Position numbers and translations under genes: made by a program
Source of the DNA: Turneriella sp.
GTDB taxonomy: Bacteria > Spirochaetota > Leptospiria > Turneriellales > Turneriellaceae
Direction: 5' to 3'
DNA length: 64,000 nucleotides
Assembly: GCA_965279515.1 (NCBI GenBank)
Contig: CBDIID010000003.1
Location: 1,952,001-2,016,000 of the forward strand
In this document: positions 17,484 through 37,508 of the stretch, piece after piece
Layout: the number at the start of each line of letters is the position of its first letter
Numbering within the stretch: position 1 is the stretch's first letter
The notes under the pieces: model-generated
The model's database searches: none
Seen by the model: the letters and a program-made list of their open reading frames with translations, nothing else
What the model was told of the DNA's origin: nothing

Positions 17484-18131
17484 TTAAAAAGTCATGGCAA
17501 CGCTCAGAAGGGGTTGCACGCTTAAGGCACTCGCCGAATAATCCGTACTTGCCCCGCCGCCGCTGGCCGCCTGGCTGACGGTCCAAAAAAAATACGAGAA
17601 ATTCACCGCGCCACCGACAAAGATATGGGTGGCGATTTCATAATCGTATCCCACCCGCAAAGCGGCGAGCGGACTGACTGCTGTGTACGTGGTCGCCGTT
17701 GCCCCCGAAATCTTGAGCAGGTTTATGCTCGCGCCGAGACCGAGACCCACGTAGAGATTTTTTACTGGAAAATACCGCGCATACGCTGCGACAGGCACCT
17801 GGGTAAGCTGGGTCGTATTCGTCGCAGAACCGATCGTAGCATTATTCTTGTAGGTAACCTGGTATCCGCCGGATATCCCCAATTGAGAGCTACTGTTACC
17901 GTACCACAGGGTTACGCCAAACGCCGGCGAAAGCACGGCACCGTTATCGGAGCCATAGACCGTCTCAACCGCAGAAGCGTATGAGCTTTTTGTGGCGTAA
18001 TTGATACCGCCATAAACCTGACCGATAAGATTCGCAGAGCGCCAAAACTCGTGGGGTGCTGGCTTGGTTTCTGCGGACAGCGTTCCAAAACCGGCAAATA
18101 TTGAACATAGAAAAATAATTCGTAATTTCAT
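17484..18131 (-). CDS. Small outer-membrane beta-barrel protein
   Basis: GAGG RBS before ATG 18131, signal peptide, amphipathic strands (YVGLGLG, LRVGYDY), C-terminal Phe. Confidence 0.7.
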   Translation of the reverse strand: MKLRIIFLCSIFAGFGTLSAETKPAPHEFWRSANLIGQVYGGINYATKSSYASAVETVYGSDNGAVLSPAFGVTLWYGNSSSQLGISGGYQVTYKNNATIGSATNTTQLTQVPVAAYARYFPVKNLYVGLGLGASINLLKISGATATTYTAVSPLAALRVGYDYEIATHIFVGGAVNFSYFFWTVSQAASGGGASTDYSASALSVQPLLSVAMTF

Positions 18132-18249
18132 AAATTCCTCGTAATTAAAAATTTTTGATGATCGCGCACACCGGAAGTGAGCAAACAAAACGCCTGACCA
18201 CGCGACTCAATGGCGCGGGCTTTAAAGCGGAAATTGCTACTTGTGTGCG

Positions 18250-18639
18250 CTAAGCCCGGGGGGGCGGAGTTTCAATGTCGGCAAGGTATGAAATGTAAAG
18301 AGGAGAGCTGATTTGAATGGCGGAAACATGGTATTGCACCGCGGTTAATCCCACCTGATTGCCCGTGAATACCCAGCGCGCGAACGCTGGCAGCACAGAA
18401 TCGTCGGCTTCGTCGGCGCAGGGATGGTCGGCTTTCAGAATTTTCGCCTTTGCCATGGCCTTGTTCAGCCTGTTGCATCCGCAGGGGCAATCTTTGCCCT
18501 TTTGCACTTTCTGCTTTGTATGAACGCAGAGAAAATATTTCGGTTGCTGCGCCGTAGCAACTTCAAAAGCACCAGCGAGCTGAGCAATAAACAGCGTGAG
18601 GCCAAAGCCGTGCAAGATTTTACACCGGAACACGCGCAT
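18250..18639 (-). CDS. Putative metal-sensing leader/arrest peptide 1 (DUF2946/CutF/CruR-analogous)
   Basis: Signal-like N-terminus, CVH...CPCGC...C, C-terminal DIETPPPRA; first gene of an MbnPH operon. Confidence 0.72.
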   Translation of the reverse strand: MRVFRCKILHGFGLTLFIAQLAGAFEVATAQQPKYFLCVHTKQKVQKGKDCPCGCNRLNKAMAKAKILKADHPCADEADDSVLPAFARWVFTGNQVGLTAVQYHVSAIQISSPLYISYLADIETPPPRA

Positions 18640-18701
18640 GCGTCCAGAATTGATGGCGAGACGCTCCGTCAAGAGATATAAAGATCTTTTATTTCACTTG
18701 T

Positions 18702-23032: not shown

Positions 23033-24634
23033 TTACGGTACGCTGGCCGAGGTTACCGAGAACACGTTGTTCTGGTAAGCGTTAGCCAAATTACCCATGA
23101 GCGCCGAATTGGTCGATGCATTGATGTACTTAGGCGACCCGGAAACTGTCGAGGTATTCACACCCGCACCACCATTAACCTGGAACAGTTTCGCCACGTT
23201 TGCCCGAACGTTAATCACCGCATTCTTGCCTTTGGTTAGCGTTATGCTCGCAGGAAAAGTTAAGGCTGTCAGGCTGCGATAATTTGCGTTTGCGCCGATA
23301 TCGAAGCCAAAATTGACAGAACCGCAACTCACGCACTGCCCGGTAATTTGTGAAAACAGGTAACTACTATTCCACATCCAGGTATACGTTGCCATATCAC
23401 GGTGAATATGCAGCTCTCCTGCTTGCAGGCTTAGGTTGTTGTTATAGGTCGAGTCTACACCAACCGAAAACTGGATGGCTGTGTAAGTCCCTGATGGCAC
23501 ATCGGCAATCGAAATTTGCTCACGGTTGGCCGCCGCAATCGTCATACCGCTATTGATGTTGCCTGGGCTAATCGCACTGTTTGTTGTCATCAGATAGTAA
23601 CTACCCGGCACGGAGTATTGCGTTGTGTCCGCTTTGGTAAGTTTAACGTTGCTTATCCAATAGCGAAAACGCGTAAAACGCAACGTGTTACTGTGATCAT
23701 CGGTATACGTCGTATTCAGCGCAAAGGTGGTGCCGTTAAAATCCTTGGCGACGTTAATTGTCGCAGTGCCGACATCGGCTTCAGAAACCGCCGTGGTAGT
23801 GGCGCTTACAAGGCTTACCGCAGAAGCAAAGTTTGCGGCTACGGTACTCATCTGGCCGGCATTATTGAAGCCGTTGATAGCACGCTTTGTAACACCCGTA
23901 TCGACGCTAACTGTGCCAATATCGATACCCGCGAACAATTTTTCTACGTCAATCTTTGCGACAATCGTTGGGGCAGAGGTCGCACTGACAGTGATATTCG
24001 TGGGAAAGCTCAGTGTTTTAGTCTGATAATTTGCATTCGTACCAAATTCGAGCGCAAAAGCCTGCTGCCCTGAGCAGCTTGTGCAGGTTCCCGAAGTTTT
24101 GCCAAAAATGTAGCTGGTAACCCACGACCACTCGATGTTGCCCATATGAGAAAAGAGGTGAAGTTCCCCTGTTCTCAAGCTCAGATCGTTATTATACGTT
24201 GAATCGACGCCTACGCTGAATTTAATCCCTTTATAGCTTCCGACAGGGACTTTTTTCAGGGTCACATTTTCCCTATTTCCCGCCGCCAGATTAAAGTTAG
24301 GCACGCGTTCGCCAGTCGTATCGCCCGTGACAGCATTATTCTGCGAAAGCAGGTAATACGCGTCCGGCACCGCAACTTCGGAATTGTCGTCCTTGATGAA
24401 TTTAACGTTCGATACCCAATAACGAACCTCGTTGATGGTGATTGTGTTTCCCGCTGCTGTCGTATACGATGTGCCGAGAGCAAAAGCCGCCCCATTGAAA
24501 TACTTCGGCATTTGCAGCGAAACCTCGCCCGTTTCGCTGGCAGATGCAGCGGTGGTACCAGATTCCTCTGAATTTTTTGCGCAGGCACCCAATAGCGCGC
24601 TGCAAAGTAAGATAAGATAAAATTTCGATTTCAT
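23033..24634 (-). CDS. Tandem two-domain MbnP-like lipoprotein
   Basis: GGAGG RBS before ATG 24634, lipobox LGAC; two internal repeats each with RYW.SNVK, F(S)VGVDSTYN, WxW (EWSW / TWMW) and CxxC. Confidence 0.8.
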   Translation of the reverse strand: MKSKFYLILLCSALLGACAKNSEESGTTAASASETGEVSLQMPKYFNGAAFALGTSYTTAAGNTITINEVRYWVSNVKFIKDDNSEVAVPDAYYLLSQNNAVTGDTTGERVPNFNLAAGNRENVTLKKVPVGSYKGIKFSVGVDSTYNNDLSLRTGELHLFSHMGNIEWSWVTSYIFGKTSGTCTSCSGQQAFALEFGTNANYQTKTLSFPTNITVSATSAPTIVAKIDVEKLFAGIDIGTVSVDTGVTKRAINGFNNAGQMSTVAANFASAVSLVSATTTAVSEADVGTATINVAKDFNGTTFALNTTYTDDHSNTLRFTRFRYWISNVKLTKADTTQYSVPGSYYLMTTNSAISPGNINSGMTIAAANREQISIADVPSGTYTAIQFSVGVDSTYNNNLSLQAGELHIHRDMATYTWMWNSSYLFSQITGQCVSCGSVNFGFDIGANANYRSLTALTFPASITLTKGKNAVINVRANVAKLFQVNGGAGVNTSTVSGSPKYINASTNSALMGNLANAYQNNVFSVTSASVP

Positions 24635-24638
24635 ATTT

Positions 24639-24750
24639 CCTCCAAATTCCAAAATCTGCCGTAAACTTACGGCGCGCACACGGCTCGCCTTAGCTGACCG
24701 CGCGCAAATAGCCTGAGATTTTGCTCAGGGTATGTTATGTGAATTTAGAG
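24639..24750 (-). promoter_or_regulatory. Anti-SD/SD attenuator structure between leader 2 and tandem MbnP gene
   Basis: mRNA CUCUAAAUUC (spans leader stop) pairs 10 bp (one G-U) with GAAUUUGGAG overlapping the GGAGG SD. Confidence 0.65.
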
Positions 24751-26605: not shown

Positions 26606-28002
26606 TTGCGCACCTCTGCCTCTGGCAGCCGCACACCGACTTCCTGTGCACCCTCGGCATTATCGGGATATTTTGCTGCGGCGAGAATGTAACTCGCGAG
26701 CGCACCCAACTCGGCCTCATTGCCAGGAAAAGGCGGCATGAAGTAGCGCGACTTATGCATGTTGCGCATATAGCCGACCATGGCATCTGCATTGAAATTA
26801 TCTTTACCCAAAAGGTTCTCAAACTTTTTCACCACAGAGTTGATGCCGCCCGAAGTGTGGCAGCGGCTGCATGCAAGCATAAAGATGTCTTTGCCCGATT
26901 CTACAGCATTTGCAGATGTAACCTCGCGGTACTTCACATAGGTCGCATGCTTCAAGATGCCGTCACGGTTTAAGAGCGCCATCTCTTTCGGCCGCACCAT
27001 GTTCGAATACATGTAATCGGCGATCACATAGGGTTTGCGAATGAATTCACGCGTACGCTCGAAGGTGACCATCAGCGTAATCGCCAGCCCTATCGGTAAC
27101 ACAAGAGCCAAGGCCGGTATACGCCAGCGGCCAATGATGCCCAGCACAGCGACAAAACCGATGACGCCTGCGGCGACTGCCATGATAACGAGCAGATTGT
27201 CATACCATGACGAGAACTCCATCGTGCCGATCGCGACCGACATGTTCTGCCGCATCATATCGGGTATGACCCAATAATAATAGATCGAACCGATGATGAG
27301 AAATGGCGTCCACGCGAGTACCCACGAACCCGTAAGACGTACGGCAGATCGTCTGAGCGCGTCATTATTCCGCACAAAAAACGGAATCAGGGCAAAAACG
27401 ACAGATCCGCCCATGACCATCGCGAGCGGAGTACGAAACGCCAGCTGCGCAGGGTAAACGGGATTCAGAAACCCCTTAATCAGCGACTGGTCGGTACGCC
27501 AGCTGCCCGGGTCCATCATGAAACTCAATATCGCGACAATGATCGCCATGGTGACCCAAGAGGCGATCGAAAGCGCGATGCCGAAGCGAATGTGTTTCCA
27601 TTTTTTCTCTGGTGAAGCATTTGATCTGCGCCAGCTGAGAAAATAAATCAGAATGAGGATGACTTCGGTGACGAAGACAATCCACTCCACGAACCAGGCG
27701 GCGAAAAAGACCCGTATCAGGCTGCCAATCGATGCAGGGCTGACAAGGCTCGCCGAGAGCCAGATGCCGACGCCGGTCATGGCGCCGAGCGATGTGGTGA
27801 TGATGAATGCGAAGAACATGACCTTGCGGGCCAGTTCATCCCATTCTTTGCTGTTATTCTTGTACCCGACGTATTCGAGATACGTCACATACGGTATGAG
27901 GCCCACCGCCAAAGCGTGGTTAATCACCACGTGCAGAATCGCAATGATCGCGATTAAAATGCGGTTGCCCATAAAATCCAAATGAAATATGGGAAAGTCC
28001 AT
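26602..28002 (-). CDS. Cytochrome bd subunit I (CydA)-like membrane protein with C-terminal c-type cytochrome
   Basis: HVVINH, GAMTGVGIW, W..EWIVFVTE, E..REFIRKPY (cf. CydA GRQPW region); CSRCH...MPPF. Confidence 0.75.
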   Translation of the reverse strand: MDFPIFHLDFMGNRILIAIIAILHVVINHALAVGLIPYVTYLEYVGYKNNSKEWDELARKVMFFAFIITTSLGAMTGVGIWLSASLVSPASIGSLIRVFFAAWFVEWIVFVTEVILILIYFLSWRRSNASPEKKWKHIRFGIALSIASWVTMAIIVAILSFMMDPGSWRTDQSLIKGFLNPVYPAQLAFRTPLAMVMGGSVVFALIPFFVRNNDALRRSAVRLTGSWVLAWTPFLIIGSIYYYWVIPDMMRQNMSVAIGTMEFSSWYDNLLVIMAVAAGVIGFVAVLGIIGRWRIPALALVLPIGLAITLMVTFERTREFIRKPYVIADYMYSNMVRPKEMALLNRDGILKHATYVKYREVTSANAVESGKDIFMLACSRCHTSGGINSVVKKFENLLGKDNFNADAMVGYMRNMHKSRYFMPPFPGNEAELGALASYILAAAKYPDNAEGAQEVGVRLPEAEVRK

Positions 28003-28173
28003 AGTTTGAACTCCTTATAGTTAATAATGTATAGGTTAAGCCGCGCGCAATAATCGGTGTTTATATGCTGCGCCATCAGGTACAGCGACGTCACCGGCGC
28101 GAATCACGGCAGTGAGAGGGCATACCTGTGGCTGCGTGCGATTCAGGCTGATTCAATGCGCGGCAGGCGGCGC

Positions 28174-28575
28174 TTAGGCCGCAGCAGATCGGGGTGGAGG
28201 CGGAGTTACTTCAGCGATAATACTATGATAAAATGGATCAATACTGGGGACAACCACAGTGAAATAACGGGGAGTCGGCACCGAAAACGGTAAGTATATG
28301 CCGCCGAAGCGATCAAAATTCGGCATGTGAGCAATATCGTCATCGGGGCTGGCACAGACATCGTCGGCGTCGACGAGCACCGCGATTTTTTTGGGTGACT
28401 TATGCTTGTGCCCGCACGGACAGGGATTTCCCTTCTGTACGCGCACCTTCATGTGGGGACACATATAATATGTTTTCACCTGTAGATTCGAAACGAGGTC
28501 GGGCACAGCCGACAATTGCAATGTAAAAAGAAAAAGACCACAAAGATGAATCGGCGTGAGAAAGCGGATCAGCAA
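28174..28575 (-). CDS. Putative metal-sensing leader/arrest peptide 3 (start uncertain, ORF extends to 28641)
   Basis: Hydrophobic N-region, CPH...CPCGH...C, C-terminal EVTPPPPRSAAA. Confidence 0.65.
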   Translation of the reverse strand: MLIRFLTPIHLCGLFLFTLQLSAVPDLVSNLQVKTYYMCPHMKVRVQKGNPCPCGHKHKSPKKIAVLVDADDVCASPDDDIAHMPNFDRFGGIYLPFSVPTPRYFTVVVPSIDPFYHSIIAEVTPPPPRSAAA

Positions 28576-28661
28576 GTTATGACCAAAGACTTTTTTCGTA
28601 CAACCGGTAAAGAAATTTCGCGAAGACTTTACGACGTTCAAAGCAAGAAGACTCTGACAAC

Positions 28662-29248: not shown

Positions 29249-29875
29249 TCAGCCGGGACAGACCGGGCTCAGCTTAGCGGTAATTTTCACATCGATATCG
29301 GGCCACAGCTTGCTTTGGCCGTCTTTACCCTTATGCAGGTCTTTGCAGGCCAGGTTCAAGGCCGCGAGCGGTGAAAGGGCGTTGAATTCAGCGATATCAA
29401 GCCTAAAGGCGACTTCGAGCCCTGCACCGTCGACGCGGCGCACCGTAGCCGAGACCTTTTTCTCGATGCCGTTGATTTTCAGGAGCAGGGTGGCGTTGTT
29501 TGCGCTCACCGATTCGACGCGTGCCCTGATCTCCCCCTTATTTTTCATCGCTGCGAAAAACGCGTAATAAATCTTCTTATCGCGGTCGGGATTATTCGTA
29601 TTCACGCTCGCGGCATCGACGATGAATTCGGCTTCTGCAAAGACCTCTTCGGGTTTCGTGGCGGTGCGCGCATTTTCAGTTCGAATCGAATTAAAAGTTC
29701 CCGAAACACCGAGGCGCTCTGTAAACTTGTATGCAGTCCATTGCAGCTTTGCCTGCGTGGGGTCGAAATCAAAGCGGCAGAGGCTGTAATCCGGTTTTAT
29801 TTCTGCTTTCTTGCAAGACCAGAAGAGTGCCAAGATAAGTACAATGCCAACAATGTGACTCTTTCGCAAAATCAT
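29249..29875 (-). CDS. YceI-family lipid/polyisoprenoid-binding lipoprotein
   Basis: Lipobox FWSC, LQWTAYK...VSGTF, SVNTNNPDRD, LKINGIEK. Confidence 0.8.
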   Translation of the reverse strand: MILRKSHIVGIVLILALFWSCKKAEIKPDYSLCRFDFDPTQAKLQWTAYKFTERLGVSGTFNSIRTENARTATKPEEVFAEAEFIVDAASVNTNNPDRDKKIYYAFFAAMKNKGEIRARVESVSANNATLLLKINGIEKKVSATVRRVDGAGLEVAFRLDIAEFNALSPLAALNLACKDLHKGKDGQSKLWPDIDVKITAKLSPVCPG

Positions 29876-29954
29876 AGTTGGGAAAAGCCTCTGCGATACC
29901 GCGCGTAAAGCCGGTTTTCACAACAGCGGTTTACGCTGTATCCATAAGATAGAT

Positions 29955-30326
29955 TTGCTGCGGAGCGCCGTGCTGAGAAAGATTACCGCCACGCTGATTT
30001 GCCTCTTGCTTCTTGCAACTGCCACCGAGGCGGTCGGACTTATCTCACACTCGACCGGCGTACTCAAATGCCCCAGCTGCAAAATGAAAATGCAGAAAAT
30101 CGACGACTGCCGCTGCCATAAGAAAAAACCTGTTTCCGCGGCGAAAATCCACGACCCCTGCGGCGACAACGAGGGGGATTTCCACATTTCCTTCGACCGG
30201 GTGCAGGGTGTTGCGGCGCCCGAAGTCTTTGTGCCGGCCGCTTTTGTCAGTACATACCTCTCTCTCTCTTATCGCTACCCCACCGGTATCACGAGCGATA
30301 TTCCGCAGCCGCCGCCGCGGCGTTAA
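29955..30326 (+). CDS. Putative metal-sensing leader/arrest peptide 4
   Basis: Signal-like N-terminus, CPSC...CRCH...HDPC, C-terminal DIPQPPPRR; directly upstream of a TonB-dependent receptor. Confidence 0.72.
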   Translation: MLRSAVLRKITATLICLLLLATATEAVGLISHSTGVLKCPSCKMKMQKIDDCRCHKKKPVSAAKIHDPCGDNEGDFHISFDRVQGVAAPEVFVPAAFVSTYLSLSYRYPTGITSDIPQPPPRR

Positions 30327-30395
30327 CTCCTGCCCAACAAACAAATAACCACTGAAAGTGGTGCATCCGCGCTAAGGCGCGAGATAAAGGAGTTA
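30324..30395 (+). promoter_or_regulatory. Anti-SD/SD attenuator structure between leader 4 and the TBDR
   Basis: TAACTCCT (30324-30331, includes leader stop) is the exact reverse complement of AGGAGTTA (30388-30395, SD); two internal hairpins. Confidence 0.7.
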
Positions 30396-30400
30396 TGTTT

Positions 30401-32587
30401 ATGCGATTATTTACGATCAAAGCCGTTGCCGTTCTTCTCATCACGAGCAGCGCAATCTGGGTACAGACACCCGAAAAGAAAGATGAAAAAACTAAAAAAA
30501 ATCCCGTGGAAATTCCCGCTAACGCAGCGGATCCTGAAGGTGTAAAAACCATCGCGGTTGAAAAAGGCGAGACTAAACCTCTCGAAGAAGAAGAAACCCT
30601 GCCCGACGTCGTCGTCACGGCCACGCGCGAAGAAGAAAAACGCCGCGATGTGCCGATGTCGATCGGCAAGATCAAACGCGACTCGATTAAAGATACGAAG
30701 CCGATCCATCCATCCGAGCTGATGAACCAGTCGCCGGGTGTGTTTGTGAACACGACAAGCGGTGAGGGACACCAGACAATGATCCGCCACCCGATCACGA
30801 CCGGCTCGGTGTATCTTTACCTCGAAGACGGTGTGCCGACGCGCTCACCAGGATTTTTCAACCATAACGCGCTCTTCGAAATTAACGTGCCACAAGCCGG
30901 CGGTATTGAAATCATCAAAGGCCCTGGTTCAGCGCTCTATGGCAGCGATGCACTCGGTGGGGTTGTCAACGTGCTGACGCGCCCTGTGACAAAAGACCGC
31001 GAAATCGACCTGAGCTTCGAATACGGCGGTTTCGGCTGGAAAAGGCTTTTGGCCTCGGCCGGCGAAAAGTTTGGCGACCATGCCATACGCGTCGATGGAA
31101 ACATGACCGATTCGAAGGGCTGGCGTGACGGTACGAAATACTCGCGCCAAAGCGGTACGCTGCGTTGGGATGCAGTCTTCGGCAAACATAAGTTCAAGAC
31201 CGTCGTCACGGCTTCGAATATCGACCAGCAATCGGCAGGCGCCGCGGCATTGCGCGAGGCGGATTATCTGAATAATTCGCAGGCGAACTACATGCAATTC
31301 TCCTACCGCCGCGTCAAAGCCGTACGTGTTTCAACTCAGTACGATTACGAAATCAGCCAGGGCAACAAGCTATCGGCCATTCTCTACGGACGCTACAACG
31401 AGATGGGGCAATTACCGAATTATATCGGCGCACAGACAACCCAGCGGGAAAACAACTTGCGCAATGCCTCGGCGGGATTGCTTTTCAAGCACCTGCTCGA
31501 TATTCAGCTTTTTCACTCAAAGCTGATTTCGGGTATCGACGCCGATTATTCGCCGGGAGTCTTTAACGAATGGAATGTAACGACTACAAAATCCGGCGAT
31601 TATTTTACGAGTTACACAACCGGCGCATTGCAATACGACTATGATGTTAAATTTTATCAGGCATCGCCGTTTGTCCAGCTCGAATCATCGCCGCTTACGC
31701 GAAAACTAAAACTGCAACTCGGTGCACGGTATGACTACATGGGTTATATCTATAAGAATAACCTGAGCGTCATTCAAACCGGTAATACACGCCGCCCCGA
31801 AGATGCATCGCCCAGCTTCAACCACCTCTCGCCTAAAGCGGGCGTCGTGTACGACTTCTTCGCCGAACTCAATGTCTTCGCGAGTTACCGCCACGGCTTT
31901 CGTGTGCCACAGCAAAGCGACCTGTTTCGCCAGGGCAGCGCCAATTCGGCCCTTGGCATCAAACCGATTAAAATCGATAGCTTTGAAATCGGTGTGAGGG
32001 GTGCGGCGCTGAAAGAACGCCTGCAATACGAGGTGACAGGCTTCTACGCCGAAAAGCGCGACGATATTGTCAGCGTCAGCCTTGCCCCCGGTGTCACAGA
32101 AACACAAAACGCGGGCACGACTTCGCATAAGGGTATCGAAATTGGCCTCGAAGCCGAGATCTTTAAGAAGCTGCTCTGGTTTGTGGGTAATGTGACTTAC
32201 GCCGAACACAAATACGTCACCTGGACGCCATCGTCGACCGCCATTCTCAACAACTATTTTCAACCCCAGGCGCCGACGATATTCGGCACAGTCAGCCTGA
32301 AAATTGTGCCGGTAAAAGGTTTACAGATCAGCCCCGAGTGGGTTTATCTGGGGCGTTACTTTATGGATGATTTGAATACGACGGTTTATCCCGGACACAG
32401 CATCTTCAACATCCGGGCAAAATATGAAGTCAACGAGCGCATCGGTGTTTTCACACGCATCCATAACCTGACGAATGTGCGTTATGCCGATATTGCTTCA
32501 TACAATTCCCTGCAGGCCGGCACATTTCCCGGCTATGTACCGGGCGAACCGTTCTCGGTCATCGCCGGCATGTCTTACAGCCTATGA
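30401..32587 (+). CDS. TonB-dependent outer-membrane receptor
   Basis: TonB box DVVVTATR, plug IEIIKGPGSALYGSDALGGVVNV, C-terminal HNLTN; ATG 30401 best spaced from AGGAG (ORF track start 30395). Confidence 0.93.
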   Translation: MRLFTIKAVAVLLITSSAIWVQTPEKKDEKTKKNPVEIPANAADPEGVKTIAVEKGETKPLEEEETLPDVVVTATREEEKRRDVPMSIGKIKRDSIKDTKPIHPSELMNQSPGVFVNTTSGEGHQTMIRHPITTGSVYLYLEDGVPTRSPGFFNHNALFEINVPQAGGIEIIKGPGSALYGSDALGGVVNVLTRPVTKDREIDLSFEYGGFGWKRLLASAGEKFGDHAIRVDGNMTDSKGWRDGTKYSRQSGTLRWDAVFGKHKFKTVVTASNIDQQSAGAAALREADYLNNSQANYMQFSYRRVKAVRVSTQYDYEISQGNKLSAILYGRYNEMGQLPNYIGAQTTQRENNLRNASAGLLFKHLLDIQLFHSKLISGIDADYSPGVFNEWNVTTTKSGDYFTSYTTGALQYDYDVKFYQASPFVQLESSPLTRKLKLQLGARYDYMGYIYKNNLSVIQTGNTRRPEDASPSFNHLSPKAGVVYDFFAELNVFASYRHGFRVPQQSDLFRQGSANSALGIKPIKIDSFEIGVRGAALKERLQYEVTGFYAEKRDDIVSVSLAPGVTETQNAGTTSHKGIEIGLEAEIFKKLLWFVGNVTYAEHKYVTWTPSSTAILNNYFQPQAPTIFGTVSLKIVPVKGLQISPEWVYLGRYFMDDLNTTVYPGHSIFNIRAKYEVNERIGVFTRIHNLTNVRYADIASYNSLQAGTFPGYVPGEPFSVIAGMSYSL

Positions 32588-33741
32588 AGCCCAGAAAAGA
32601 ACTCATCCTCGCCGTAACGCTCGTCGTTGCGGCGGGCCTTATCGGCATGCGGTTCTTGCGCGGCAAAGCACAGCACCATAGGCATGAAAAAATCACCGGT
32701 GATGCGAGCTTCGACGCTTATGCGGATGGCCCGCGTATCCATGTCCTGATTCTCCGGCAGCACGGAGATCACCAGGTATTGCTCTATAAAAAAATTGAGA
32801 ACGGCAATGAATCCACCGAAACCGAACTGCCGCATGCCGCCGGTGAGAAAATTATTTCGCGCCGCTCGAACGACGTGCGCGTCGCCGCGCGCGGAAACCA
32901 CATTCTCGCTCTTTGGCAAATTGCAGGCACAGGTTACGCGAACCGCGGTCCCCTGCGCGCCGCTGAAAGTACTGACGGCGGCAAAACATGGAAATCGGCA
33001 CCGCAGCCACTTGCCCCAGGGCGTACCGATGACCAGGGTTTTGTCGCCCTAATGGCTGACCGTAATGGAAAATTCCAGGCAGTGTGGCTCGATCTCGACG
33101 CCAAACTCAAGGGTCTGCGCCATGCGTCATATGACAGCGGCGTATGGTCGAAGCCTGCGACGATTGATACGAAAACATGCGAATGCTGCTGGAACACGCT
33201 GAAAGAAAATCCCGCGGGCGATCTGCTTGTGCTCTACCGCAATGCCAAACCACGCGACATGGCACTGGCAAAATTCTCCGCTGGTGCCTGGCAAAAGGCG
33301 GGCATCGTCGACAATTTTGACTGGCGTATCGAAGCCTGCCCGCATGCCGGTGGTGGCCTCGCCTCAGATAATAATTACACGTACGCCGTGACCTGGACAG
33401 GCCACGAGACGGCGCAGGGAGCCTACTTTAACCGCAAGAAGAACAGCGATAACCGCTGGTCGCTGAAGACAAAGCTGGGCGGTAAATCCGCGCGCAATCC
33501 CGATATCGTCGAAAATTCAGGCCGCATTGCAGTAGTGTGGGATGAATTCGAAGGCGAACGCCGGCTGGTAAAAGTGCAGACATCCGCCAATGCCGGCGTC
33601 ACCTGGACGAAAGCAGAGATGCTGACAGGCGCGAATGTCTCAGGCTCATACCCGCGCATTGTCGGCGCGGCGCAGGGTTTCACCGCTTTCTGGTCAGAAA
33701 CACAGAACGGGCGCACGGCAGTGCGCTTCAAAAAGCTGTAA
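32584..33741 (+). CDS. BNR/Asp-box beta-propeller (sialidase-like) periplasmic partner of the TBDR
   Basis: STDGGKTW and SANAGVTW Asp-boxes, CECC and CPH motifs, His-rich QHHRHE. Confidence 0.8.
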   Translation: MKPRKELILAVTLVVAAGLIGMRFLRGKAQHHRHEKITGDASFDAYADGPRIHVLILRQHGDHQVLLYKKIENGNESTETELPHAAGEKIISRRSNDVRVAARGNHILALWQIAGTGYANRGPLRAAESTDGGKTWKSAPQPLAPGRTDDQGFVALMADRNGKFQAVWLDLDAKLKGLRHASYDSGVWSKPATIDTKTCECCWNTLKENPAGDLLVLYRNAKPRDMALAKFSAGAWQKAGIVDNFDWRIEACPHAGGGLASDNNYTYAVTWTGHETAQGAYFNRKKNSDNRWSLKTKLGGKSARNPDIVENSGRIAVVWDEFEGERRLVKVQTSANAGVTWTKAEMLTGANVSGSYPRIVGAAQGFTAFWSETQNGRTAVRFKKL

Positions 33742-33742
33742 A

Positions 33743-35239
33743 CTACTCTGTGCTGCTGGTGATGATTTGCACGTTGCGAAACTGCATCAGCTCGGGCAGT
33801 GCGACGGGTAATCCCGCTTTACCAGGTGGGCGTGGGCGAGGTGTCAGAACCATCGCATCGGGCGAGTAGAGCTCGAGCTCATTGTTCGCAACCGGGAACT
33901 CTTTAGGCCTCACGGGATCATATTTACCCGTAATCGTCACCCAGCCCGTCGGCTGTACGAAGACCTGCAGAAACTCCGTGGATTTTTTAGCGTCGAGATC
34001 AAAGAAACGCATGCGCCGGCAGGGAATACCGAGACTGCGGTAAATGCCGCAGCGCACGTCGTTCCTCAGCGTCGCATCTTTCTGCGCCGTCGCAATCGCA
34101 TAGATCGGATGTTTGCCTTCGTTCTGGCCGAGCCACGTCTTGCGGAAAGCTTCGACCGATGCCTGTTCCGCAGGGCTGATGAGCATGTTATCGAGAAACG
34201 GCCGCACGTTGTCAGGCAACTCGGGGCTGCGGAAATACTGCTTGAGCAGGGGACCGTTGAAGATGTGCGTCAGGTTAAAAAGCGTCGCCTGGAACTGTAG
34301 CTTGTACGAGCGCTTGCGCTCGCCGCTTTTCTGCTCGAGCAAAATCTCCGAGGTATGCGCGCCGTCTTCTTGCCTGCCAAACCGTGTCGCGGGATCAGCG
34401 CGCAGGCCTGCGACGCGCTGGTGCGCGGTCACGGGCAACAGGGCATATTTCAGCTGCATCTTCGATTCGCGCGCACGGTCTTCGTCGCCCCAGGGTAAGG
34501 CCAGATCAATTTCACCCGCGATGGTAAAATTGCGCCGGGCCGCCGCCACATAGTTTTCCGTTTCGATGAAGTCGACCGAACGCACCTGGCCGGGGCGCGC
34601 CACGTACATGCCGCCATCTACGAAAGCAATGCCATAACACCCTTCGGGCAGTGGCAAAAAACTCACCTGCTGACCATCGGTCGGCGAAAGCTTATATGCC
34701 TTGCCATCCTTTGCAATGGCCCAGAGAAAACCTTTATAGAAGGTCATGCTGCGGATGTCCGACGTGACTTCCGGGGTAAATGATCCGAATTGCATGCGAT
34801 CCACCATGTGGTAGCGGTAAATCTTCTTGTCTTCCCGGTTATAGATGTATGCCTGGTGCATGTCGAGAGCAATCGCGACCGGGTCAGCGATGCCCTTGAG
34901 TTGTATCTTATCGACGAGATCGCCGTTCAGGGGATTAATGACATAGACGTAATTGGGCCCGACGGTTACAAGATTCGGCGCCCAGTAAGCAATATCGCGC
35001 ACGTCGAATGACATCGTGCGCGGTGCGAGTTTTTTTTTCTGTCCGACGTCGTAGCCGGTCAGCTCACGCGTCTGCGCATCGGCGACCCAGAGTATGGTAC
35101 CATCATGGGCGAGGCCGAGAGGGATTTTTGTTTCCAGTTGAACGTCGTCGGCAGAGAGGGGGGAGATAAGCAAAATGAAACTAAGAAGTATTCCGCGCTT
35201 CGCCCCACCCCCCAGGCTTGGGGGCGAATGGGGCGTCAT
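33743..35239 (-). CDS. Secreted beta-propeller protein with degenerate transglutaminase-like domain
   Basis: GLAHDG..LWVAD propeller repeats; RSLGIPCR and VFVQPTGWV transglutaminase-like segments. Confidence 0.6.
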   Translation of the reverse strand: MTPHSPPSLGGGAKRGILLSFILLISPLSADDVQLETKIPLGLAHDGTILWVADAQTRELTGYDVGQKKKLAPRTMSFDVRDIAYWAPNLVTVGPNYVYVINPLNGDLVDKIQLKGIADPVAIALDMHQAYIYNREDKKIYRYHMVDRMQFGSFTPEVTSDIRSMTFYKGFLWAIAKDGKAYKLSPTDGQQVSFLPLPEGCYGIAFVDGGMYVARPGQVRSVDFIETENYVAAARRNFTIAGEIDLALPWGDEDRARESKMQLKYALLPVTAHQRVAGLRADPATRFGRQEDGAHTSEILLEQKSGERKRSYKLQFQATLFNLTHIFNGPLLKQYFRSPELPDNVRPFLDNMLISPAEQASVEAFRKTWLGQNEGKHPIYAIATAQKDATLRNDVRCGIYRSLGIPCRRMRFFDLDAKKSTEFLQVFVQPTGWVTITGKYDPVRPKEFPVANNELELYSPDAMVLTPRPRPPGKAGLPVALPELMQFRNVQIITSSTE

Positions 35240-36717
35240 TTTTCAATCTCCAAGACAGAAGCCGCTTCGGGCCGCAGAGCCGACTTTTTCTTGTAGATAT
35301 CCGGAGGGCCGCATAAGAGCACGGTGAAATTTTCCGGCCGGTAATATTTTTTCGCCACACGCAGTACATCCGCCTCGGTGACCTGGCTGAGATATTTGGC
35401 ATAGTCAGGCAGATAACTTAACGGCAGGCCATCCCACTTGAGTGTCAGGTAGAGTTTCATGTATTGCGCCGGATTTTCAAAGAGAAAAACAAATTTGTTC
35501 TTCAGGGAAAGTTTGGCTTCTTCGATTTTGTCGCGGCTGACAAAGGCCTCAGGTTTTGCCAGGATCTCGTCCATCACCTCGACGACGTCGGGTAAATTGA
35601 CATTCGCGGTCTGTGTAAAAAGCATGAGCGTACCGGTAAAATCGTCTGTTTCAAACGTCGAATAGGCGCTGTACGCCCAGCCCTTTTCTGTGCGGATCTT
35701 TTGCGTGAGATAAGAGTTGAACGAATCGCCGCCGAGTAAAAAATCGAAGATGCGCAGCGCATAATAATCGGCGTCGGTATGTTTCATGCCCGGCGCCTTA
35801 TAGACCACGGTTGCCTGGGGAATATCGCGCGGTAAAATACGCAGCGCATTCGCCTTCGCCGTCGGCTGCACATGCATCACGGCCAGGTCGGGACGTTTTT
35901 TTTCGTCGCGCGCCATTTTGCCGAATGTGTTTTCGAGCAAAGACTTCAGCGTTTCTTCTTTGATATCGCCCGTAATGGCGAGACTCAGCCGTTCGCCGCG
36001 CCACATGCGCCGCTGCCAGTCAGCGAGGTCTGCCGCTTGCAGGTTCTTCACGGTGCGTATTGTCGCGTAACGCCCGCGCGGCGTGCCGCCCCAGAACATT
36101 TTCGTCATGCCCAGCGACGCCCACTTCGCAGGATTTTCATCGCGGCGCTCAAACTCTTTGAGAACACGCGTGCGGATAATTTCAAAATCCTCAGCGGCAA
36201 GCCGGGGCGATTCGATGACAGAAAAAAGCTTCGTCAGGTCATTGGCAAAATAGTGCGACATCGAGTTGATATTAAAACTCGAGCGCTCCATACCGCTGGA
36301 AAAACTGAACGACGAGGCGCGGTTCTCCAGATATTCCGAAAGTTTATCGCGGTCGAAATCTTTCGAGCCGGAAAATACCACGGTTTCGCCCCAAAGGCCG
36401 TGCAGGCCCAGCTTTTCGTCGGGCACTTCAAAACCGCCGCCTTCCATATAGACCTGCGCGCTCACCAGCGGAACATTTTCAGAGAACAGATAATAGACAG
36501 GAATGCCGTTCGCGAGCTTAAATTCCTTGACCTGCGGAATTTTCGGCCGCGGCATTTCTTCTTTGATGTAATGATACCAGGGACGGCTTGCTGTATCGAC
36601 GCTAGCCTTGGCCGCGGGTTTTGCTCCCACGGGCTTACCCTGTCCTTTGCCGGCGATCGAAAATGTTACGATAAGAAAAATGCCGGCCATCACCGGCTTC
36701 GAAATTTTTCGCGTCAC
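35236..36717 (-). CDS. M16 (insulinase/pitrilysin) family peptidase, non-catalytic subunit type
   Basis: LANGIPV, LGGDSFNSYL..KIRTEKGWAYS, VTEADVLRVAKKY; HxxEH absent. Confidence 0.85.
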   Translation of the reverse strand: MTRKISKPVMAGIFLIVTFSIAGKGQGKPVGAKPAAKASVDTASRPWYHYIKEEMPRPKIPQVKEFKLANGIPVYYLFSENVPLVSAQVYMEGGGFEVPDEKLGLHGLWGETVVFSGSKDFDRDKLSEYLENRASSFSFSSGMERSSFNINSMSHYFANDLTKLFSVIESPRLAAEDFEIIRTRVLKEFERRDENPAKWASLGMTKMFWGGTPRGRYATIRTVKNLQAADLADWQRRMWRGERLSLAITGDIKEETLKSLLENTFGKMARDEKKRPDLAVMHVQPTAKANALRILPRDIPQATVVYKAPGMKHTDADYYALRIFDFLLGGDSFNSYLTQKIRTEKGWAYSAYSTFETDDFTGTLMLFTQTANVNLPDVVEVMDEILAKPEAFVSRDKIEEAKLSLKNKFVFLFENPAQYMKLYLTLKWDGLPLSYLPDYAKYLSQVTEADVLRVAKKYYRPENFTVLLCGPPDIYKKKSALRPEAASVLEIEK

Positions 36718-37508
36718 TTGTTAAACCGCTGCTCGTTCTTCTTTTTCATCTCTTCGATCGCCGAGCCGGCATCCTGAATCTTTACAGAGTTCTTTACTTT
36801 TTCGAGCAGCTCGATCTGGCGGTTCTTCTCGCGCTCCATGATCTTATACTGCGCCTCGCGCATGCAGTTGAGCTGCTTAAACAGCTTCATCTTTTTCTTG
36901 ATAAAATCTTCCATCACGCCCTTGACGAGGGCGTTATCGACGCCGGTCACCTGTTCGCCTGCAGGGATTTCCTGCTCTTCGTTCTCGCGGCCGGCCGAGG
37001 CCACGGCAACTTTACCGTGGTTCACAAACACACCGGCGGGAATATCTGAATCTTCGGCCCCGGCTTCTTCGGGGGCATCCCCTGCACTGATAATAAATTC
37101 GGTACCGCGCACACCCGCGACAATCGTCGGCGTCTTGATCTGGTATTTCGAGCCCGGCGTCATTTGTTTGGCAAATTTCGTATAACCGCGGCCCGATTCG
37201 AGTTCGAGCGAGATGTTGGTCTTTTTATCCATCTCAAAAAGATCGCTGATCTTCACGGTGCTGTAAGGCGCCAGGTGCAATACCGCGCTCGGCCCGATCT
37301 GGATATCCATCTTGCCTTTTTTGGTGAAAACCCGGTCGTTCTTGAAAAAGATCGTTTTGACCTTCGCGACCTCAGATTTGCCGTCGCGTTCATAATAACA
37401 CTCGCCGCTGGCCACCAAAACCGCAGCGAGCAGCTCTTTAGGCTTTTCCTGGGCATGGGCAAAGCGGATTGCCCCCGTCATGGATAATAAAATGATGAGT
37501 TTGCGCAT
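36714..37508 (-). CDS. FecR-domain (LipL45-like) periplasmic protein
   Basis: IKTPTIVAGVRGTEF, VNHGKVAV. Confidence 0.8.
   Translation of the reverse strand: MRKLIILLSMTGAIRFAHAQEKPKELLAAVLVASGECYYERDGKSEVAKVKTIFFKNDRVFTKKGKMDIQIGPSAVLHLAPYSTVKISDLFEMDKKTNISLELESGRGYTKFAKQMTPGSKYQIKTPTIVAGVRGTEFIISAGDAPEEAGAEDSDIPAGVFVNHGKVAVASAGRENEEQEIPAGEQVTGVDNALVKGVMEDFIKKKMKLFKQLNCMREAQYKIMEREKNRQIELLEKVKNSVKIQDAGSAIEEMKKKNEQRFNK

Follow-up and report, generated by a model that had tools for sequence, protein, structure and literature searches.

The stretch of DNA analysed here, called the window throughout, comprises 64,000 nucleotides of a Turneriella sp. genome (GenBank assembly GCA_965279515.1, contig CBDIID010000003.1, positions 1,952,001 to 2,016,000 of the forward strand); all coordinates below are those of the window. 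Our subject is a short reading frame, referred to as leader 4, and the gene for a TonB-dependent receptor that follows it on the same strand, between which a predicted RNA helix joins the stop codon of the former to the latter's Shine-Dalgarno sequence (SD). The elements of this junction, with pairing taken from the minimum free energy (MFE) fold, are the following.

29955 to 30326, plus strand: open reading frame of leader 4, 123 residues long from TTG 29955 or 118 residues from GTG 29970
29955 to 30032, plus strand: putative Sec signal, with basic residues R3, R8 and K9, then the hydrophobic core ITATLICLLLLA, then TEA
30069 to 30161, plus strand: cysteine cluster (C39-x-x-C42, C52-x-C54 and DPC69), presumed metal-binding part of the nascent chain
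30220 to 30360, plus strand: C-rich, G-poor stretch in the composition profile (GC skew −0.29 to −0.39), covering the 3' end of the leader and the first part of the spacer
30309 to 30323, plus strand: PPPRR codons CCG CCG CCG CGG CGT, presumed arrest motif, in the PPPR-x-stop format of CutF
30324 to 30331, plus strand: 5' arm of the helix (anti-SD), TAA stop plus CTCCT, TAACTCCT, paired in the MFE fold
30348 to 30362, plus strand: first interior hairpin of the MFE fold, ACCACT-GAA-AGTGGT, with no T run after it on this strand
30365 to 30385, plus strand: second interior hairpin of the MFE fold, with core CGCGC-TAAG-GCGCG at 30368 to 30381, extended to 8 pairs with one bulge
30388 to 30395, plus strand: 3' arm of the helix in the MFE fold, AGGAGTTA, carrying the receptor SD AGGAG at 30388 to 30392
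30401 to 32587, plus strand: TonB-dependent receptor gene (Pfam Plug, 2.2e-16; TonB_dep_Rec_b-barrel, 1.2e-41)

The two arms of the helix are exact reverse complements over 8 bp, as the initial annotation had claimed, and each occurs only once in the 64-kb window; the 5' arm begins, also as claimed, two codons past the PPP motif (30309-30317, residues 119 to 121 of 123). The RNA fold of 30290-30420 has an MFE of −40.5 kcal/mol (z = −2.47; equalled by 2 of 200 shuffles), and in it the 8-bp helix, which is present in both the MFE and the centroid structures, closes a two-hairpin multiloop, in agreement with the multibranch structure originally proposed. Since the 3' end of the genome's 16S rRNA reads CACCTCCTTA, a canonical SD is used in this genome. 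The receptor probably starts at ATG 30401 rather than at ATG 30395, which lies partly inside the helix: in one ortholog an ATG is missing where 30395 would be, and every ortholog has ATG-CGA/AAA where 30401 would be. This choice gives a spacing of 8 nt from GGAG and a leader-receptor spacer of 74 nt. NCBIfam yields for the receptor only generic TonB receptor matches, below the cut-off.

Conservation was studied in six orthologous leader-receptor junctions: that of the window, four from species genomes of the genus (L020, L012, L014, L028) and one from a metagenome contig (L033); six further leader-4-like proteins (P0028-P0030, P0032-P0034) are outside this set. The stop codon is TAA in four junctions, TAG in one and TGA in one, CTCC follows it directly in all six, and the receptor SD is invariably AAGGAGT(T/A)A. 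The closing helix between stop+CUCC and GGAGU(U/A)A is present in the MFE fold of every junction with a pairing probability of at least 0.98, and its seven core pairs are intact in 41 of 42 cells; two one-sided A-to-G changes are the TGA and TAG stops, in which pairing is retained as G.U. Spacer length varies between 72 and 110 nt, and the 2-3 interior hairpins are unrelated in sequence. Mean pairwise identity over the six junctions is 90% for stop+CTCC, 95% for the SD arm, 68% for the PPPRx codons and 33% for the spacer interior: the helix foreseen by the initial annotation is both formed in the MFE fold and kept in 6/6 junctions despite the divergence of what it encloses. A non-coding tetranucleotide is thus held more strictly than the codons beside it, which calls for a function; the simplest candidate is pairing with the SD. 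The receptor ortholog occurs in 5 of 20 genomes of the family, the same five that carry the leader-4 type, so that leader and receptor are co-inherited. A receptor-based scan of genome contigs returned three loci (a duplicate of L014, a truncated one, and an unrelated Bacteroidota receptor with no leader-profile match within the 1.5 kb fetched on each side), and a metagenome scan with the leader alignment returned one new locus.

Leader 4 is a full small protein of 118-123 residues and not a mini-leader. The shorter form begins at GTG 29970, preceded by GGAG at a distance of 5 nt; the database gene call (entry P0024) has this start. The Kyte-Doolittle 12-residue maximum is 2.73, at residue 10; the C-terminus is DIPQPPPRR, followed by the TAA stop at 30324-30326; and C69 stands 50 residues from the terminal prolines. 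No Pfam or NCBIfam match to leader 4 was found. An alignment of 30 distinct leaders from loci L001-L033 (A3) shows that the family consists of a basic and hydrophobic N-terminus, four invariant cysteines and a proline cluster at the extreme C-terminus, with little else conserved. A similar N-terminal hydrophobic segment, the residues C39, C52, C54 and C69, and a terminal PP are present in 30/30 members, while the proline cluster itself takes the forms PPPR-x, PPDxPS, PPVPPG and PPxxKPG. C42 is kept within the receptor-linked subfamily and is not conserved in the other subfamilies; the CXXC that characterizes CruR leaders is found as C39-P-x-C42 in 5/5 members of the A2 alignment and in L033. 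The distance from the last invariant cysteine to the first terminal proline is 45-52 residues (median 50), even though this segment is the least conserved part of the protein; a single distance of 43 is due to an extra PP earlier in the tail.

These features can be read in the light of the known arrest leaders that control a downstream gene. CutF-like proteins have been collected by iterative sequence search from CutF seeds and defined (Ozturk et al., mBio 2023, PMC9973294) as being shorter than 150 residues, having PP among the last 15 of them, bearing a signal peptide and lying next to a gene on the same strand; TonB-like proteins are described there as their second most frequent neighbours, spacers as mostly shorter than 100 nt, and Spirochaetota as contributing few of them. 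CutF itself, from the cutFOG operon of Rhodobacter capsulatus, is reported to end in P109EPEGPPPRL118, to require its PPP motif experimentally and to carry four cysteines in its mature part (bioRxiv 10.1101/2025.02.05.636593). Its metal motif is given as 45 residues from its proline motif, a length that the authors relate to the ribosomal tunnel plus the SecY channel (PMC9973294). Leader 4 agrees with this definition in its length below 150 residues, its terminal PPP and its 74-nt same-strand spacer, its basic and hydrophobic N-terminus is a putative signal peptide, and the SD-shielding stem-loop of CutF has a predicted counterpart in the MFE fold of 6/6 orthologs (P of at least 0.98). The likeness extends to total length (118 residues in CutF versus 118-123 here), a putative N-terminal Sec-type segment, the four cysteines of the mature part, the PPPR-x-stop ending, a spacing of about 45-50 residues between metal motif and proline motif, a short spacer with a stem-loop, here a predicted one, over the SD of the following gene, and the proposed logic by which an arrested ribosome opens that SD. 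CutF differs in that it has no detectable sequence relation to leader 4, which is not matched by DUF2946; in its downstream gene, a multicopper oxidase rather than a TonB-dependent receptor; in its cysteine motif, CxxxC rather than CxxC...CxC...C; and, as judged from neighbours that look like uptake genes, in the expected sign of control, which here would be opposite.

A comparable RNA logic is known from SecM, VemP and MifM, exported or inserted leaders with an arrest sequence at the C-terminus, on which the stalled ribosome melts a stem-loop hiding the SD of the gene that follows (PMC9973294). Those leaders differ from leader 4 in monitoring the secretion machinery (secA, secDF, yidC2), whereas here an outer-membrane receptor and a metal-type cysteine cluster are involved. 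Of the initial label of a SecM/CutF-like switch, the second half therefore stands on the CutF hallmarks just listed, while the first holds for the RNA logic only, as the downstream gene is no secretion factor.

We regard a sensor-leader switch of the CutF kind as the best supported explanation of the locus and hold it with moderate confidence. What the computation shows is the helix, its conservation beside the stop codon, the co-inheritance of leader and receptor, and the CutF-type architecture. In the proposed mechanism leader 4 would be a short exported peptide whose cysteine cluster emerges on the periplasmic side as the ribosome reaches the C-terminal PPPR. On the resting mRNA the stop codon and CUCCU (30324-30331) would pair with AGGAGUUA (30388-30395), closing the two-hairpin multiloop and hiding the receptor SD. 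A ribosome detained where the leader ends, by arrest at PPPR or by slow termination, would occupy or unwind the 5' arm, freeing the SD so that the receptor can be translated; once the leader is completed and the ribosome gone, the helix would re-form and the receptor would be off. We infer that the ribosome is arrested at PPPR and that a metal modulates this arrest, most likely copper in view of the nearby MbnP/MbnH genes described below. Both an efp and a rho gene are present in the genome. Overall, leader 4 is well supported as a member of the known CutF/CruR kind of leader.

The initial annotation had placed the anti-SD roughly within the footprint of a ribosome stalled at the prolines, and had suggested folding the region with and without that footprint masked. 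Relative to the P site the 5' arm lies at +12 to +19 with the second proline (Pro2) in place and at +9 to +16 with the third (Pro3); with the stop codon in the A site it lies at +3 to +10. With 60 nt of upstream context, the energy required to open the receptor ribosome-binding site (RBS) in free mRNA is 9.9 kcal/mol in the window, and it falls to 4.3-4.9 kcal/mol with a mask to +15 from Pro2, with Pro3 in the P site, or with a ribosome on the stop. In the same context the larger masks lower the opening energy by about 3-5 kcal/mol in 5 of the 6 orthologs.

Because a ribosome on the stop opens the helix equally well, these calculations leave room for plain coupling or hand-off, in which the helix would constitutively and proportionally tie receptor translation to translation of the leader and place the stop near the SD and start, any ribosome at the stop would unzip the 5' arm, and the terminating ribosome or one close by would initiate, while PPPR and the cysteines would serve a periplasmic function of the leader protein itself, with no regulated arrest. 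In classical coupling by SD masking the distal SD is paired with the end of the proximal gene and opened by translating ribosomes, and neither an arrest motif nor a sensor domain is needed in the proximal gene. Consistent with such a scheme, the masks that represent a terminating ribosome (to +12 or +15 from the stop) open the RBS as much as the Pro3 mask, and the stop codon itself is inside the helix in leader 4 as well as in its paralog leader 2. For simple termination-reinitiation, on the other hand, a spacer of 74 nt is long. Coupling also leaves unexplained the strict C-terminal PP(P) in 30/30 leaders, the 45-52 residue linker of fixed length and variable sequence, the lack of any other conserved domain, and an ending identical to the PPP motif required in CutF. 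We consider it unlikely on these grounds, though even for CutF the authors were unable to tell whether a second or the released ribosome initiates (bioRxiv 10.1101/2025.02.05.636593).

A different question is whether the helix could be chance complementarity with no function, as C/U-rich sequence of proline codons readily matches a G-rich SD. A perfect complement of at least 8 nt covering GGAG within 80 nt upstream was found for 7 of 472 SD-bearing control starts (long open reading frames of the same genome); shuffling 30309-30380 produced one in 10 of 5000 trials. Pairing of an SD is commonly predicted as such: in two sets of control starts the median probability that the SD is paired is 0.61-0.68, and values of at least 0.98 were reached in 10 of 183 and in 15 of 200 starts. 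The single helix is thus uncommon, not extraordinary, and on thermodynamics alone unremarkable. It is its conservation in the orthologs that places it above chance.

The same question was addressed at the level of the family, in which leader 4 has three paralogs, all on the minus strand of the window; together these are the only four copies in the genome.

28174 to 28641, minus strand: leader 3, ending in VTPPPPRSAAA
24745 to 25155, minus strand: leader 2, ending in ETPPPRAL
18250 to 18672, minus strand: leader 1, ending in ETPPPRA

For 27 junctions with a script-assigned SD and start, pairing was counted when at least 3 of 4 SD bases were paired in the MFE with the region −33 to +10 of the leader stop; as controls we used real SD starts of the same genome with pseudo-stops at matched distances. 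The downstream SD pairs with the leader end in 19 of 27 junctions versus 56 of 472 controls, and in 21 of 29 when L028+ and L033 are added (L018 is unscored). The site of the anti-SD differs by subfamily: some have it immediately behind the stop, others within TPPPR or DTPS as the Thr-Pro codons ACU-CCN, and others in Pro-Pro codons (UCCUCC against GGAGGA). Compared with an internal 48-nt piece of the same leader, the leader end is the better partner of the SD in 22 of 29 cases, and the average advantage is about 2 kcal/mol.

Two of the three paralogs in the window, leaders 2 and 3, also pair their ends with the downstream SD. In leader 2, inspection reveals a 10-bp helix, CUCUAAAUUC:GAAUUUGGAG (24640-24649 / 24741-24750, minus strand), that includes the stop codon: CUC-UAA-AUUC pairs with GAAUUUGGAG, the SD of a double-MbnP gene with probable start at ATG 24634, and closes a multiloop (MFE −57.1). 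This junction was scored negative automatically, the script having picked GAGG and not GGAG. In leader 3, AACUCC in the Val-Thr-Pro codons (28202-28207) pairs with GGAGUU (28009-28014) on the minus strand, across a 171-nt spacer; GGAGUU is the SD of a membrane/cytochrome c gene starting at 28002, and the anti-SD falls within the codons of the arrest motif of leader 3. Given the family rate of 19/27, and an anti-SD that in the receptor-linked subfamily is non-coding, directly after the stop, and kept in 6/6 junctions while the nearby spacer is scrambled, we regard chance as a very improbable explanation.

Several results nevertheless weigh against the switch, and some of them lend chance what support it has. 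The opening energy of the receptor RBS (−15 to +5) is 9.8 kcal/mol versus a median of 6.4 for 200 likely true starts, 37 of which have values of at least 9.8, so that the predicted masking is ordinary; among the broader set of 472 control starts the median is 8.0. Covariation, named at the outset as a way of checking the helix, did not bear it out: no compensatory double change was seen (0/10 pairs) and the scores are no better than those of shuffles. Double changes are not expected to begin with, because one arm is an SD; by the same token, the conservation of the helix would be that of the 5' arm, the 3' arm being constrained as an SD anyway. The alignment thus supports the helix through conservation and not through covariation. 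In the family, 8 of the 29 scored junctions have no helix between leader end and SD. None is seen either for leader 1 (18111-18285, minus strand), the exception within the island, whose downstream SD (GAGGAA before ATG 18131) is weakly paired in a local A/U hairpin. Non-cognate leader ends pair at least as well in a mean fraction of 0.39 (0.5 would correspond to no specificity), and much of the complementarity is generic, that is, Pro or Thr-Pro codons against GGAG; this objection is void for the receptor-linked subfamily, because its anti-SD is non-coding. None of the four leaders matches Pfam DUF2946 (PF11162), even at E ≤ 10.

The footprint calculations contribute to the same side. With a mask to +12 from Pro2 the opening energy is 8.8 kcal/mol and the helix survives, and in L028 masking barely alters the opening energy. 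The gain also shrinks with longer upstream context (in the window, 9.7 to 6.8 kcal/mol at 370 nt). With 120 nt of upstream context and the main arm masked, a CU tract at 30257-30270 becomes the predicted partner of the SD, in a pairing that spans the place occupied by the ribosome, and the mean probability of the SD being unpaired is at most 0.23 in all six orthologs. The proposed position of the anti-SD within the footprint thus holds if arrest occurs at Pro3 or later, or if the helicase of the ribosome reaches past +12, and it does not hold for a mask to +12 from Pro2; similarly, folding with the footprint masked bears out the proposal for the larger masks in 5/6 orthologs, the +12 mask leaving the helix intact. 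The CU tract, CCTCTCTCTCTCTT, lies in the coding region of the leader (TYLSLSY), where the peptide reads ..TYLSLSYRY.. in the window and ..TQLFYSHSY.. in the nearest ortholog.

Another mechanism has been described for a leader in a similar position. CruR (Bp2923) of Bordetella pertussis controls a TonB-dependent transporter through an arrest at RAPP that blocks Rho and is relieved by copper, and such leaders are typically followed by genes among which are those for TonB receptors as well as MbnPH-like ones (Roy et al., mBio 2022, PMC9426467). Leader 4 resembles it as a cysteine-rich leader standing first in an operon with a TonB-dependent transporter and having relatives that head MbnPH-like operons, in the logic by which an arrested ribosome would turn the downstream gene on, in the conserved spacing from cysteine to proline motif, and in a region with more C than G in the 3' part of the leader. 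In a CruR-type alternative, arrest at the leader end would mainly hide a Rho-loading site, release would lead to Rho termination before the receptor, and the SD helix would play a secondary part or add to polarity by leaving the 5' end of the receptor untranslated. The C-rich stretch at 30220-30360 is a possible Rho-loading region on its composition, and together with the rho gene, the CxxC of the receptor-linked subfamily and the gene context it speaks for this alternative. CruR is, however, described as Rho-dependent and independent of signal peptide and EF-P, with RAPP and a spacer of 162 nt in cruR-bfrG (PMC9426467), whereas leader 4, which is not a DUF2946 match, has no RAPP, ends in QPPPRR, and is followed by a hairpin-folded spacer of 74 nt with a conserved SD-masking helix. 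Moreover, the CUCC fixed after the stop in 6/6 orthologs would be left unexplained. We therefore judge Rho termination as the main mechanism to be improbable; a CruR-like Rho component would be compatible with the SD switch and is possible beside it.

As regards the sign of control in the CutF-like switch, the downstream genes look as if they served copper acquisition, and we therefore expect that metal would shorten the arrest (receptor off in the presence of copper, the CruR case) and not prolong it (the CutF case). The four leaders head operons consisting, respectively, of the TonB receptor and a BNR-like gene; two membrane/cytochrome c proteins; pairs of MbnP and a MauG-like di-haem peroxidase (MbnH-type); and a gene of no assigned function with another MbnP/MbnH pair. 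From its gene content this neighbourhood looks like a copper-acquisition island. Four genes with MbnP domains lie densely between 14166 and 24679 on the minus strand, and behind each of them comes a gene for a MauG-like di-haem peroxidase; the MbnP gene at 23033-24679 carries two MbnP domains. An outer-membrane Phenol_MetA_deg-like gene belongs to the same run, and a YceI-like gene is found at 29249-29875.

To our knowledge, metal-sensing exported leaders have been characterised in two cases only, CutF and CruR, which act by different mechanisms, unmasking of an SD in the one and Rho termination in the other. The locus described here joins the gene context of CruR (TonB receptor, MbnPH neighbours) with the RNA logic and the PPPR-x-stop ending of CutF, in a phylum where CutF-like leaders are reported to be scarce (PMC9973294). 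The family falls outside Pfam DUF2946, has four copies in one island and varies in where its anti-SD is placed; counts based on Pfam thus overlook some of these regulators. The natural series of anti-SDs, after the stop or in Thr-Pro or Pro codons, is a compact system for studying how far a stalled ribosome must reach to open a masked RBS, and the family is suited to asking whether what the downstream gene does sets the sign of control by metal.

A broader reading, which we offer as tentative and rather doubtful in its full extent, is that of a sensor-leader family of this spirochaete lineage in which arrest module and anti-SD are fused in a cassette of about 30 nt, and of which four copies within 12 kb would run a copper-acquisition island post-transcriptionally, with metal ending the arrest and a sign opposite to that of CutF. 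In such a cassette the anti-SD would be either the ACU-CCN of the arrest motif or a CUCC welded to the stop, so that the arrested or terminating ribosome itself would hold the masking bases; the four cassettes would govern the TonB receptor, several MbnP/MbnH pairs and the membrane cytochromes. Leader homologs are present in all 13 other genomes of the genus and in one of six genomes that represent the five further genera of the family, but 21 genomes taken from elsewhere in the order and class yielded none. One relative, P0034, combines an N-terminal half of the leader-4 type (CPRCKMK..DPCGDNEGDFHISFDR) with a TPPPRA ending like that of leaders 1 and 2, which suggests that sensor and tail modules may recombine between subfamilies.

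The family is narrow in the databases as well. A profile search of 5.8 billion proteins returned 34 unnamed relatives without Pfam domains, and a HMMER profile scan of 1.84 billion representatives returned 21; both stayed within a spirochaete family, and no link to DUF2946 was found. In the ESM Atlas a DUF2946/CzcI cluster is among the nearest named neighbours (0.94, 106 shared features), which is to be taken as a lead only. In a six-frame search of the genome itself DUF2946 had no match above the cut-off of 23.7; the only signal, L034 (G000:C3:828377-828760), reaches 18.3 bits with 4 in-frame TGA codons and is probably noise. Among the publications found on DUF2946, and on Turneriella together with copper and TonB, no title or beginning of an abstract describes this family.

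Around the junction (29700-30600) neither an intrinsic terminator, or other terminator-like site on the plus strand, nor a sigma-70-like promoter was detected. The hairpin at 30348-30362 was considered as a terminator and discarded, as it has a terminator-like score only on the minus strand, where no gene ends. An Rfam scan of 29800-30600 at E ≤ 1 gave a sole match of 16.8 bits, on the other strand, attributable to chance. Downstream, the receptor gene is followed by one further gene in the same direction.

32584 to 33741, plus strand: BNR-repeat-like gene (BNR_2, 1.2e-05, below the Pfam cut-off), with a 4-nt overlap with the receptor stop

This gene probably shares an operon with the receptor; the overlap of the receptor stop with its ATG at 32584-32587 (ATGA) suggests tight coupling inside the operon. 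Beyond it, on the minus strand (33743-37508), there are a 498-residue gene of no assigned function, an M16-family peptidase-like gene and a FecR-domain gene; a FecR-type sensor beside a TonB receptor could provide a second, transcriptional layer of control.

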